Part shown: positions 1 to 3,000 of the stretch, piece by piece | Numbering within the stretch: position 1 is the first letter of the stretch | How the letters are laid out: each line of letters starts with the position of its first letter | Source of the DNA: a virus | Taxonomy: Duplodnaviria; Heunggongvirae; Uroviricota; Caudoviricetes | Direction: 5' to 3' (one strand) | IMG/VR virus record: IMGVR_UViG_2529293223_000015 | Coordinates: 1-16,212 of that record | Length of the DNA: 16,212 nt | Program-made: the position numbers

Positions 1-3000
1 TTAACGCGTATTTTTCAGCGACTCCTGTGCAAAATACGCTGTTGCTTTTTTTAATATATCTCGCTCAAGGCGAGCTTCATTTAACGCCTTACGCAGTTGC
101 AGAATTTGAGATTCCAGTTCAGCCACCGTGCGGGAACCAGGAGTACCGAGCCCTTTTCTGGCGGCGGTAACCCATTGTCCTAAAGTGCCTTCAGGAAGGG
201 ATAATCGGGAAGCGCCTTCACTGGAAAGTTGATTTTCAAGAACCGTTCTGACAGCTTCGGCTTTGAACTCTTTAGAGTAACGTTGGGTTTTTCTGCTCAT
301 TATTAGCTCCTTCTGATGCCATTCTATTTCAGGAAGGAGTGTCCGTTAAACTCAGGCTACCTCAGTCTTTTCCGGTGTGTCCGTGACATACAGTCCATAC
401 ACCAATGATATCTTTGTATGGTATGTAGCTGACACCTTCCAGACCATCGTTACCACCTGGGCCAGTGATTAACACAGATGCTATAGCAACAGCCCCGCCA
501 CCAATAGCAACTGCAACAGCCTTGCGTAATGATGGCGACATTATTCACCTCTCGCAGCCTTACGCTTATCTTCTCTTATTTTGAAATACAGATTCGTCAG
601 ATAAGTCAGAAGCCCCAGAAGCAGACTTCCCAGCACACCAATCGCAGCCCACTGTGACGGACTGACCTGATCCAACCACTGCAAAAACCAGTAGCCGGCA
701 CTGCCGGCGGAGGTGCCGTAGGCAATGCCTGTTGATATTTTTTCCATCTGATACATATCCGCCCCCCCAGACAGACCTGTGCTATCGGAAAGAAAAAAGG
801 CCATCAACAAAACTCTGATGGCCTGAATCACCTTTACCAATATTGTATGAAAAAACACGCACGTCTAATTGACAATAATTTTCATTTCCATTAAAAAAGA
901 TCGCGTAGCATTCTTAATTCATGAGGAACTTTACCCGCCAGCAATCTGAGTAGCGAAAGCTGTTCATCCCCAATGTTTTTGCTGGCGGGTCCTTTTTTCT
1001 ACGGTCCTCCTCCCCGGAGGGGGCATTTCATTATTTTTCTAATCATTACTGGTGAGAAGGCGGAAGAAAAAGCCAGTTCTTCGCCCCTAAATAACAGCAT
1101 GATTCCAGTCCATGCAAAATCTGATTTCCAGCTCACACATACCGAGCGCTGTACAAAAAACCGCCAGCCAAGGCAGTTAAGAGTGTGTTCCCGGGGTTTG
1201 CTTAGAATATTTTGTAAGTTGTCCGAAGAGATATTTACAACACCAGAATGATGAATCATCAGTCCCCTGCCAGAGGTTCACTACGTAACCTGACCGACAA
1301 TGCACCATTCTGGTGCTGAAAAAAGAGCACTGGAACTGCAACAAAACAACATCACAGAACAGGAGATGGTAAGGAGTCAGACATTCCCACACAATATTGT
1401 GTCAGTGCAAATAACAACCTTCGTCTCAAATCTCGCTGGAGCGGGCAGCGGGAATCGAACCCGCATCATCAGCTTGGAAGGCTGAGGTAATAGCCATTAT
1501 ACGATGCCCACATATGGTGCCGACTACCGGAATCGAACTGGTGACCTACTGATTACAAGTCAGTTGCTCTGCCTGCTGAGCTAAGTCGGCGCTGGCCCAC
1601 CACCGAGGACTCGAACCTCGCACCGTCAACTTAGAAGGTTGATGCTCTATCCGGATGAGCTAGTGGTGGTTGGTGGCCCTTGCTGGACTTGAACCAGCGA
1701 CCTGGCGATTATGAGTCGCTCGCTCTGACCAACTGAGCTAAAGGGCCGGAGGCAGAATAATAACCATATGTCATCACATCTGCAAACTCATCTGACCACC
1801 AGCACGTTTAACGTCCTGTGCCGTTTCTGTGTGGCGTAGTAACCACTCTTAACAGGATATTCAACTTTTTACGATCGTAAAGTTTTCGGAAAAAATTTTT
1901 AAAACCGCATCAACCGCTCCACCAGTTGCTCTTTACGGGCAACGATCCACCCGTGTTGCTCCAGATAAAATTTAAACCGTTCCAGAGTACATACCATCGC
2001 ATCGGCGGGTACCTTTTCCGTGAACTCAACCTGACCGTGTTTATCGAAGTGGCTCAGTAATGCGCATCCATCATTTTCGATAGATGTGTTTTGTGCCGCT
2101 GGTGGCTGTTTCTGGTTGAAATAACAGTCTTCCAGTTTTTCGAACACTTCCCACGCCTGATCGGTTTCGAGCATTTTGGCGTGACGGGCTGCGCCACGTT
2201 CTGTCCAGAGGATGAGGGAGCGAACGTTACGGGCAATTTTCACAGAAACTCTTAAAGAGTTTTCGTTCTTCAACTCTCGTAACGCATCACCTTCTATCAG
2301 GAAAAAATGTTTACCTTCTATAAACCGTTCTTTGTTTCGATTGAAATTGTTTGTCAAACGCTGGCGCTCTGTTCCGTACAAATCAGCCAGCAGCTCTGTT
2401 TGAAGTGGCACACTGAATTTGGCCACCTGAACAGAGGTGATATGCTCACCTCAGAACAACACAGGTGCTCCAATGAAAAAAAGAAATTTTAGCGCAGAGT
2501 TTAAACGCGAATCCGCTCAACTGGTTGTTGACCAGAAATACACGGTGGCAGATGCCGCCAAAGCTATGGATGTTGGCCTTTCCACAATGACAAGATGGGT
2601 CAAACAACTGCGTGATGAGCGTCAGGGCAAAACACCAAAAGCCTCTCCGATAACACCAGAACAAATCGAAATACGTAAGCTGAGGAAAAAGCTACAACGC
2701 ATTGAAATGGAGAATGAAATATTAAAAAAGGCTACCGCGCTCTTGATGTCAGACTCCCTGAACAGTTCTCGATAATCGGGAAACTCAGAGCGCATTATCC
2801 TGTGGTCACACTCTGCCATGTGTTTGGGGTTCATCGCAGCAGCTACAGATACTGGAAAAACCGTCCTGAAAAACCAGACGGCAGACGGGCTGTATTACGC
2901 AGTCAGGTACTTGAGCTACATGGCATCAGCCACGGTTCGGCCGGAGCAAGAAGCATCGCCACAATGGCAACCCGGAGAGGCTACCAGATGGGACGCTGGC

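Follow-up and report, generated by a model that had tools for sequence, protein, structure and literature searches.

The question raised by this locus is why a lambdoid prophage should carry a closely packed row of four tRNA genes ahead of its lysis genes, where these genes came from, and what they may still contribute in a prophage that has largely fallen apart. The DNA under study, referred to as the window, is the whole 16,212-nucleotide (nt) stretch of the IMG/VR virus record IMGVR_UViG_2529293223_000015 (Caudoviricetes); the element in question is the tRNA array at positions 1437-1747, composed of a tRNA(CAU) of the tRNA-Ile2 type, tRNA-Arg(UCU), tRNA-Thr(UGU), and tRNA-Gly(UCC). The answer we regard as probable is that the array is a four-gene tRNA operon of the lambdoid Q-S slot, i.e., the interval between the late antiterminator gene Q and the holin gene S, which has its own promoter, serves as a codon supplement, includes Thr and Gly genes of host descent, and survives in the window as a relic. 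An initial annotation had proposed a late-region cluster of captured host genes and rare-codon readers; its observation is confirmed, and its interpretation is supported with qualifications concerning the 5′ end of the Arg tRNA, which is a lineage trait, the array's own promoter, and the defective state of the prophage.

ARAGORN, applied to the whole 16.2-kb window, predicts exactly four tRNA genes, all on the minus strand, with the same outer coordinates that had been proposed for the cluster. The objection foreseen at the outset, namely that tRNA predictors might reject the folds or assign different anticodons, did not materialise: both ARAGORN and Rfam accept all four, ARAGORN with the expected anticodons CAU, UCU, UGU, and UCC, and each tRNA lies above the gathering score of 29 of the Rfam family RF00005 (E-values from 4e-10 to 6e-14). 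The genes had been listed in transcription order, which is correct, with the minus strand left unstated; in this order, the spacers read A, GC, and TAT, in agreement with the claimed packing at 1-3 nt, and all four genes encode CCA. In a pair-by-pair check, each tRNA forms a full cloverleaf with the canonical bacterial features—stems of 7/4/5/5 base pairs (bp), a 7-nt anticodon loop with U33, U8, A14, G18G19, the T-loop TTC, and a score above gathering. Non-standard pairs are restricted to A27xC43 in the tRNA(CAU), U2·G71 and U13xU22 in tRNA-Gly, and one T-stem pair in tRNA-Thr, the latter being present also in thrU of Escherichia coli K-12 (NC_000913.3, the reference for all host tRNA genes).

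The array is preceded by a sigma-70-type promoter with the hexamers TTGCAG and TATTAT. The -10 hexamer ends 9 nt before the first base of the tRNA; therefore, the predicted transcription start lies about 2-3 nt before the mature 5′ end. A promoter scan also recovered this site, with a register shift of 1 nt (TTTGCA-18-TATTAT), and both hexamers are kept in five relatives with otherwise diverged flanks. On a broader scale, scanning IMG/VR with the Thr-Gly junction yielded at least 120 loci, and among the matches listed, TTGC[A/G] and TAnnnT occur at a fixed distance in 32 of 34 distinct upstream sequences (95 of 101 loci). The information per column amounts to 1.36 and 1.49 bits in the hexamers, the higher value belonging to the -10 hexamer, to 0.81 bits in the spacer, and to 0.46 bits further upstream; because the upstream sequences are related, this conservation supports the promoter rather than proving it. 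Given its own conserved promoter, the array is not simply a late gene. The late-region location assigned to it in the initial annotation thus stands as far as the Q-S slot on the late-operon strand is concerned, and is qualified as far as the mode of expression is concerned. One short polycistron would be made from this promoter, to which Q-modified late transcription would add in an intact prophage; RNase P would cut each 5′ end, and 3′ exonucleases would trim the 1-3 nt trailers after the encoded CCA.

In the window, the late antiterminator Q, a pR'-like promoter, the tRNA genes, and an S21-type holin gene follow each other on the minus strand, with an ORF6N gene and the insertion sequence IS911 lying between. 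tRNA genes occupy the Q-S slot also in five annotated relatives, i.e., the sister loci L001 and L008 (DUF1133 Q-like gene, tRNAs, holin), the Shiga toxin (Stx) 2 phage F349, phage PhiR47_1 (Q, CAU-Lys-Thr-Gly, S), and phage 21. A prophage of E. coli FDAARGOS_944 (NZ_CP065613.1), apparently intact, is identical over positions 1400-1800 at 400 of 401 nt and carries its array, annotated as tRNA-Ile, -Arg, -Thr, and -Gly, in the interval between a Q-like gene and the holin gene; copies with one base difference are annotated in Shigella prophages as well, e.g., in S. flexneri SFBU1023.

A close known counterpart of the array is the tRNA cluster of Stx-converting lambdoid phages, the 933W-type ileZ-argN-argO cluster, for which Stx2a_F349 served as representative and whose gene names follow GenBank annotation AP012530.1. 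There, the order is Q, ileZ-argN-argO, stx2. The two arrays have in common their location on the late-operon strand between Q and the lysis genes, the conserved TTGCA-17-TATTAT promoter, an ileZ-type CAU gene in first position (74/77 identical), and, following it after 1-2 nt, a C1-G72 Arg scaffold in second position (64/77). They differ in that the second tRNA reads UCU in the window and UCG in Stx argN; that the third and fourth genes of the window are host-derived Thr(UGU) and Gly(UCC), whereas the third of the Stx cluster is argO(UCU); that the spacers of the Stx cluster are 1 and 13 nt by annotated coordinates as compared with 1-3 nt; and that no toxin gene follows in the window.

The kinship with tRNA-Ile2 had been proposed for the first gene and is borne out by its identity to Stx-phage ileZ (74/77), ileY (71/77), and ileX (69/77), as opposed to only 54/78 with elongator metT and 48/78 with initiator metZ. 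TilS distinguishes tRNA-Ile2 from tRNA-Met by the pairs C4-G69 and C5-G68. Both pairs are contained in the acceptor stem of the array gene (GGCCCTT/AAGGGCC), and its identical copy in L001 is labelled tRNA-Ile by the Prokaryotic Genome Annotation Pipeline (PGAP). By its CAU anticodon, its relatedness to ileX and ileY, and these two pairs, the gene belongs, on sequence, to tRNA-Ile2. Where ileX and ileY form the pair G27·U43, the phage ileZ-type genes surveyed, that at 1671-1747 included, contain A27xC43 or U27xC43; owing to this mismatch, the phage ileZ-type anticodon stem comprises only four pairs.

The Arg(UCU) gene has the acceptor stem CCACCAC/GTGGTGG, i.e., C1-G72 with discriminator G73. 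It resembles Stx argN (UCG; 64/77) more than argU (58/79) or Stx argO (46/77) and is, hence, neither argU-like nor argO-like, its anticodon loop being that of argU. The atypical C1 pointed out in the initial annotation is real, yet it is not peculiar to this copy: Stx argN also begins with C1, which marks this 5′ end as a feature of a phage tRNA lineage. The identical gene occurs in at least 25 IMG/VR loci and in Shigella flexneri and E. coli genomes, with four arrays in the single genome of S. flexneri SFBU1023; the C1-G72 scaffold was found in E. coli, S. flexneri, E. albertii, Serratia proteamaculans, and Yersinia pekkanenii. The identity set of E. coli arginyl-tRNA synthetase (ArgRS) consists of A20, C35, U36 (or G36), and a purine at 73. 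With an A following G18G19 in the D-loop (ATCCGGATA), the anticodon UCU, and the discriminator G, the array gene contains this set and is predicted to be an ArgRS substrate.

Across the sister loci, the C1-G72 scaffold in the second array position (slot 2) combines a conserved body with a very variable anticodon loop (e.g., L035 1719-1792, L010 5537-5609, L095 3695-3767, and L007 2658-2734). Its forms include CUUCUAA (Arg UCU), CUUCGAA (Arg UCG), and CCUUUAA, which is called Lys(UUU), has C33 instead of U33, and is present in 52 arrays among the matches listed; loops of 5-6 nt (UAAAU, UUAAU, UUUAU, CCAGGU, CUUGGU) occur as well and cannot be normal decoders.

For the third and fourth genes, a capture of host thrU and glyT with loss of the intervening tyrU had been suggested. 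The near-identity is confirmed: the Thr gene agrees with K-12 thrU at 74 of 76 positions, differing by T16C and T20C, both in the D-loop, and this allele is found in at least 26 IMG/VR loci; the Gly gene agrees with glyT at 74 of 75 positions, the exception being C2->T (plus-strand position 1510), which creates the U2·G71 pair. Both anticodon arms are host-identical. The Gly change is a singleton among about 122 glyT-like genes listed and the sole difference from L001 over positions 1400-1800; it affects the pair C2-G71, an identity pair for glycyl-tRNA synthetase (GlyRS) in E. coli tRNA-Gly, and it probably weakens charging. Among the 120 sister arrays listed, the Thr gene shows 100% identity to K-12 thrU in 80 cases, and the Gly gene to glyT in 103.

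Sequence features in line with such a capture are seen at the junctions. The Thr-Gly spacer is TAT in 109 of the 120 sister arrays listed. In K-12, the base 3′ of thrU is T and the two bases 5′ of glyT are AT; TAT would therefore be the leftover of a clean deletion of tyrU together with its spacers, the chance of such agreement with the host flanks being about 4/64. Host flanks upstream of Thr or downstream of Gly were found in none of the 120 sister arrays listed, the 5′ flank of glyT was retained in no viral contig searched, and the window holds no host flanking or intergenic DNA beyond TAT. A candidate intermediate form, however, does exist: at L146 and L147, two contigs of one isolate genome, a prophage CAU-Lys-thrU array is followed by the host spacer TCAAGTCC and nt 1-35 of tyrU, 120 of 120 positions being identical to K-12. 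The context of L147 is lambdoid (RusA, Q-like DUF1133, methylase, array, PerC, SASA esterase). The two contigs part from the host sequence, and from each other, exactly at the tyrU anticodon, so that the break point lies in an anticodon loop and has two different continuations. This is DNA-level evidence for descent of the Thr gene from the host thrU-tyrU locus, or for exchange between the two. The TAT junction, the fully identical sister genes, and the tyrU remnant together support a host origin of both genes and the claimed loss of tyrU; Thr and Gly would have been taken from the thrU-tyrU-glyT operon, with tyrU deleted later.

When compared with the E. coli operon thrU-tyrU-glyT-thrT-tufB, the window has near-identical Thr and Gly genes in the same order and orientation. 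It contains neither tyrU nor thrT, and the two long spacers and the promoter of the host operon are missing as well; instead, Thr and Gly are fused behind two phage-lineage tRNAs under another promoter. Exchange with the chromosome runs in the other direction, too. At L148 (IMG/VR 2698536408_000009), of which positions 4860-5537 correspond to window 1826-1437, the prophage Gly gene runs into the host sequence AGATGT-thrT-tufB, with 330 of 330 positions identical to K-12. This is a recombinant of the prophage glyT copy with chromosomal glyT, and such arrays can therefore drive chromosome rearrangement.

Several sister copies of the two host-derived genes have diverged. Five thrU copies (L008 2579-2654, L108, L024, L094, L122) carry TCATC in place of TCAGT in the 3′ strand of the anticodon stem; four of them are left with three pairs, and in L122 a compensating change in the 5′ strand restores all five. 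In L008 (2501-2575) and L108, the glyT copy has the anticodon UAC, G37, and a deletion in the 3′ acceptor strand, and is labelled tRNA-Val by PGAP; it is probably a decayed gene. In Escherichia phage SerU-LTIIb (KU052038.1), positions 1122-1275 match the array Thr and Gly genes at 96% and are annotated as tRNA-Arg and tRNA-Gly, which suggests a thrU scaffold with a changed anticodon beside LT-II toxin genes.

The array is an already known, routinely annotated lambdoid phage module. At least 80% of positions 1400-1800 is covered in 582 of 5,426 complete E. coli genomes (about 11%). The window as a whole is contiguous in no complete E. coli genome, and the S. flexneri and E. coli loci compared with it agree with it piecewise only. 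Among the matches listed in the IMG/VR scan, with the window and four reference loci added, CAU-Lys(UUU)-Thr-Gly is the most frequent type (52), followed by the window's type CAU-Arg(UCU)-Thr-Gly (31), Thr-Gly alone (21), and arrays with an aberrant slot-2 anticodon loop (about 12). In Thr-Gly-only arrays (e.g., L116, L101, L038; 90 nt upstream of Thr), the first two tRNAs are replaced by a conserved hairpin, GGTTCCGAGGG...CCCGAGGAACCA, which ends in ACCA. With a TATTAT- or TATGAT-like box ahead of it, this hairpin may represent what is left of a tRNA in minimal form, or else a signal for processing.

As to the function, the initial annotation had seen in the Ile2 and Arg genes a means of decoding rare AUA and AGA/AGG codons, and had named a codon comparison of late genes as a check. 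As the lambdoid genes remaining in the window are too few for this purpose, codon usage was determined in the intact sister prophage L001 (7,804 codons), the array of which departs from that of the window at a single base in 401, and compared with 40 annotated K-12 genes (13,786 codons). Among the 61 sense codons, the three most enriched in the prophage are AGG (8.6-fold), AGA (7.4-fold), and AUA (3.2-fold), with ACA (2.1-fold) at rank 6 and GGA (1.7-fold) at rank 8; the chance of all five named codons falling into the top eight is 56/5,949,147, i.e., about 9e-6. What the four tRNAs decode, thus, are low-usage codons ending in A that the phage overuses, in keeping with a classical codon supplement. 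Following lysidine modification by TilS and charging by the isoleucyl-, arginyl-, threonyl-, and glycyl-tRNA synthetases (IleRS, ArgRS, ThrRS, GlyRS), the products would read AUA, AGA/AGG, ACA, and GGA, and, since these codons are over-represented in prophage genes, the array would relieve a decoding bottleneck of the phage.

Several points weigh against this interpretation. ACG, ACU, and GGG, which are also read by array tRNAs, are not enriched in L001; the K-12 baseline is one 50-kb region; and the result is a correlation that does not prove selection for decoding, since the same bias would be seen in any horizontally acquired DNA of E. coli that is richer in AT. Enrichment in L001 is, furthermore, stronger in early than in late genes; a constitutive promoter of the array's own accounts for this better than a role as helper of late genes. 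The rare-codon proposal therefore holds as a correlation, and for all four tRNAs instead of two. Finally, almost no phage genes are left in the window for the array to serve, its remaining part being interrupted by IS911 and Mu-like DNA and its endolysin gene truncated.

How far this damage goes is evident from the neighbourhood of the array (Table 1). L148, which is 99.7-100% identical to window positions 5424-3647, 2400-1827, and 1826-1437, has no IS911 and continues as lambdoid DNA at 5424/5425, where the window passes into a Mu-like prophage (5425-16212, with its end at about 5425) comprising mom (5506-6255), com, and genes for tail and tail fibre and for the baseplate. In addition, 38 nt (cttaaacccgccgatgagcgggtttttttatacctgaa) present in L148 and L001 are absent from the window at 1826/1827; they constitute an intrinsic terminator by which the ORF6N gene is set apart from the tRNA promoter, so that both sister loci have a terminator upstream of the array promoter and the window does not. 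Based on IS911, the Mu-like junction, and the lost terminator, the window is a heavily damaged lambdoid prophage. Since the prophage is wrecked, the array would survive as a self-expressed relic, at most adding rare-codon capacity.

Downstream of the array, between the first terminator-like hairpin and the Gly gene, neither an Rfam family nor a Pfam-supported open reading frame (ORF) was detected; a permissive Rfam search of positions 800-1950 returned nothing beyond the four tRNAs, and the predicted folding of the 290 nt that follow Gly is not unusual (z = -1.3). The holin-endolysin region further on is about 89% identical to that of phage 21. Upstream, promoter, isrK-matching RNA, C4-like RNA, and Xcc1-like RNA on the minus strand of 3752-4190 make up an immI-like RNA-controlled antirepressor module, which is now separated from its ORF6N gene by IS911.

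Table 1. Positions of the tRNA array, its signals, and neighbouring features in the window, together with the arrays of two sister contigs that retain part of tyrU.
Feature	Positions	Strand	Evidence or remark
tRNA(CAU), Ile2 (lysidine) type, ileX/ileY/ileZ family	1671-1747	-	ARAGORN; Rfam 70.5 bits
tRNA-Arg(UCU), phage argN-type scaffold, C1-G72 and G73	1593-1669	-	ARAGORN; Rfam 56.4 bits
tRNA-Thr(UGU), thrU copy with T16C and T20C	1515-1590	-	ARAGORN; Rfam 69.8 bits
tRNA-Gly(UCC), glyT copy with private C2->T	1437-1511	-	ARAGORN; Rfam 60.1 bits
-35 hexamer TTGCAG of the array promoter (sigma-70 type)	1780-1785	-	sequence reading
-10 hexamer TATTAT of the array promoter	1757-1762	-	17 nt after -35; ends 9 nt before tRNA +1
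First terminator-like hairpin and T-run after the array	1151-1178	-	about 260 nt after Gly; hairpin at 1178-1159; conserved in L001
Stretch without supported gene, about 580 nt	1436-757		after the array
S21-type class II holin, first lysis gene downstream	541-756	-	PF04971, 3.8e-35
Endolysin, first 59 codons only	362-541	-	PF00959, profile positions 3-27 of 125
IS3-family transposase gene adjoining the cut endolysin	1-300		ORF 1-300; PF01527
ORF6N antirepressor-like gene, 3′ part, cut by IS911	1899-2400	-	PF10543 minus first 13 profile positions
IS911 between the Q/pR' region and the array	2398-3652	+	99.0% identical to IS911 of Shigella phage Sf6
sRNA-Xcc1-like RNA	3752-3835	-	77.4 bits
C4-like antisense RNA	3969-4052	-	71 bits; c4-a1b1 target match
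isrK-matching short terminated RNA	4078-4154	-	Rfam 77.5 bits; terminator 4099-4083
pR'-like promoter directly after Q, TTGACC-18-TATATT	4161-4190	-	
Late antiterminator Q	4195-4590	-	PF06530, 2.4e-52
RusA	4571-4942	-	
Array with tyrU remnant, L146	2144-2419		IMG/VR contig of genome 2681813004
Array with tyrU remnant, L147	3008-3283		IMG/VR contig of genome 2681813004

In view of this damage, the array might be a neutral leftover, i.e., the cargo of a dead prophage that is perhaps still transcribed, is under no selection here, and has started to decay. The losses relative to L148 (the IS911 break, the Mu-like end, the missing terminator), the endolysin reduced to a stub beside an IS3-family transposase gene, the private Gly substitution at a GlyRS identity pair, and the decay of glyT copies in the sister arrays L008 and L108, with their UAC anticodon and damaged 3′ acceptor strand, are all in line with it. 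On the other hand, only one substitution in 401 nt separates the array from that of an intact prophage, and the promoter, the four cloverleaves, and the CCA ends are all intact. Four arrays are kept in S. flexneri SFBU1023, at least two of them accompanied by insertion sequence copies matching the window's, which is compatible with retention; like the array of FDAARGOS_944, they comprise the same four genes with C2 in Gly, whereas the window has U2. We consider decay without selection unlikely, the data being compatible with slow decay as well as with retention. That the four genes are not phage-borne at all, constituting instead a chromosomal tRNA operon or a prophage attachment site, receives practically no credit: tRNA genes are common integration targets and Thr and Gly are nearly host-identical, but all four genes are complete and embedded in the prophage, flanked by the ORF6N gene and the holin gene; corresponding arrays are found in the deposited phages vB_EcoS-689R5, phi467, and PhiR47_1; and K-12 has no such operon, its thrU and glyT being separated by tyrU and 124 nt of spacers. 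The prophage-internal position and the deposited phage genomes refute it.

A further possibility is counter-defence, in which array tRNAs replace host tRNAs destroyed by tRNA-cleaving defence nucleases. PARIS and PrrC, for instance, destroy tRNA-Lys. Host tRNA-ThrU(UGU) is the target through which the P2 Old protein kills, cleavage taking place at paired CNG motifs of the anticodon stem, and phage tRNA-Thr(UGU) genes, among them the Q-S slot gene of phage 21, rescue Old toxicity; extra host-type tRNA-ThrU gives little or no protection, resistance requiring a changed motif and a shortened stem (PMC12445682). PARIS is reported to be neutralised by a viral tRNA-Lys (PMC11464382). These precedents speak for counter-defence, as do the five sister thrU copies that have lost the CAG motif through TCAGT->TCATC and the slot-2 scaffold with its many anticodon loops, including the UUU "Lys" form with C33. 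The genes of the window itself argue otherwise. Its Thr arm is that of the host (ACUGA/CUUGUAA/UCAGU), with both CNG motifs (CUG, CAG) and a 5-bp stem, which is the type found to protect little or not at all (PMC12445682); the Gly anticodon arm is that of the host as well, and the Arg loop is that of argU. As an Old-resistant rescue tRNA, the window Thr was rejected: it has the UGU anticodon, and neither an altered CNG motif nor a shortened stem. Phage 21 (OL657228.1, the source of the tRNA-Thr21 sequence), with the order Q21, pR', tR', Asn, Thr, S21, shares with the window the Q-S slot beside an S21-type holin and the UGU anticodon, so that both Thr tRNAs have the same decoding role for ACA; its Thr gene, however, is built on an unrelated scaffold (52/77) with a shorter, altered anticodon stem, and it has no Ile2, Arg, or Gly genes. 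On account of this identity value and scaffold, the window Thr is not an orthologue of the Old-rescuing tRNA-Thr21. The host-identical arms and the unrelated phage 21 scaffold make counter-defence weak for this window, with no more than a slim chance. A wider variant concerns the array family: because slot-2 loops have been rewritten (UCG, UCU, UUU with C33, 5-6 nt) and some thrU stems look Old-resistant, the family could be more than a codon supplement, namely a set of replacement tRNAs evolving under the influence of tRNA-cleaving defences, of which the window would represent the unarmed, host-like state; this we put forward as a speculative and rather improbable idea.

The codon-supplement operon with host-derived Thr and Gly genes, here surviving as a relic, thus remains our preferred interpretation. 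For the window as such its significance is small, as the array is a widely annotated prophage module. What it contributes to the understanding of lambdoid phages is direct evidence, at the sequence level, that thrU and glyT were acquired by these phages from the host operon; the host spacer and half of tyrU are still present in a sister array. The host-identical Gly gene, moreover, can recombine with chromosomal glyT, which makes such arrays substrates for genome rearrangement, and the variable anticodon loop in slot 2 offers a candidate link to defence systems that target tRNAs.

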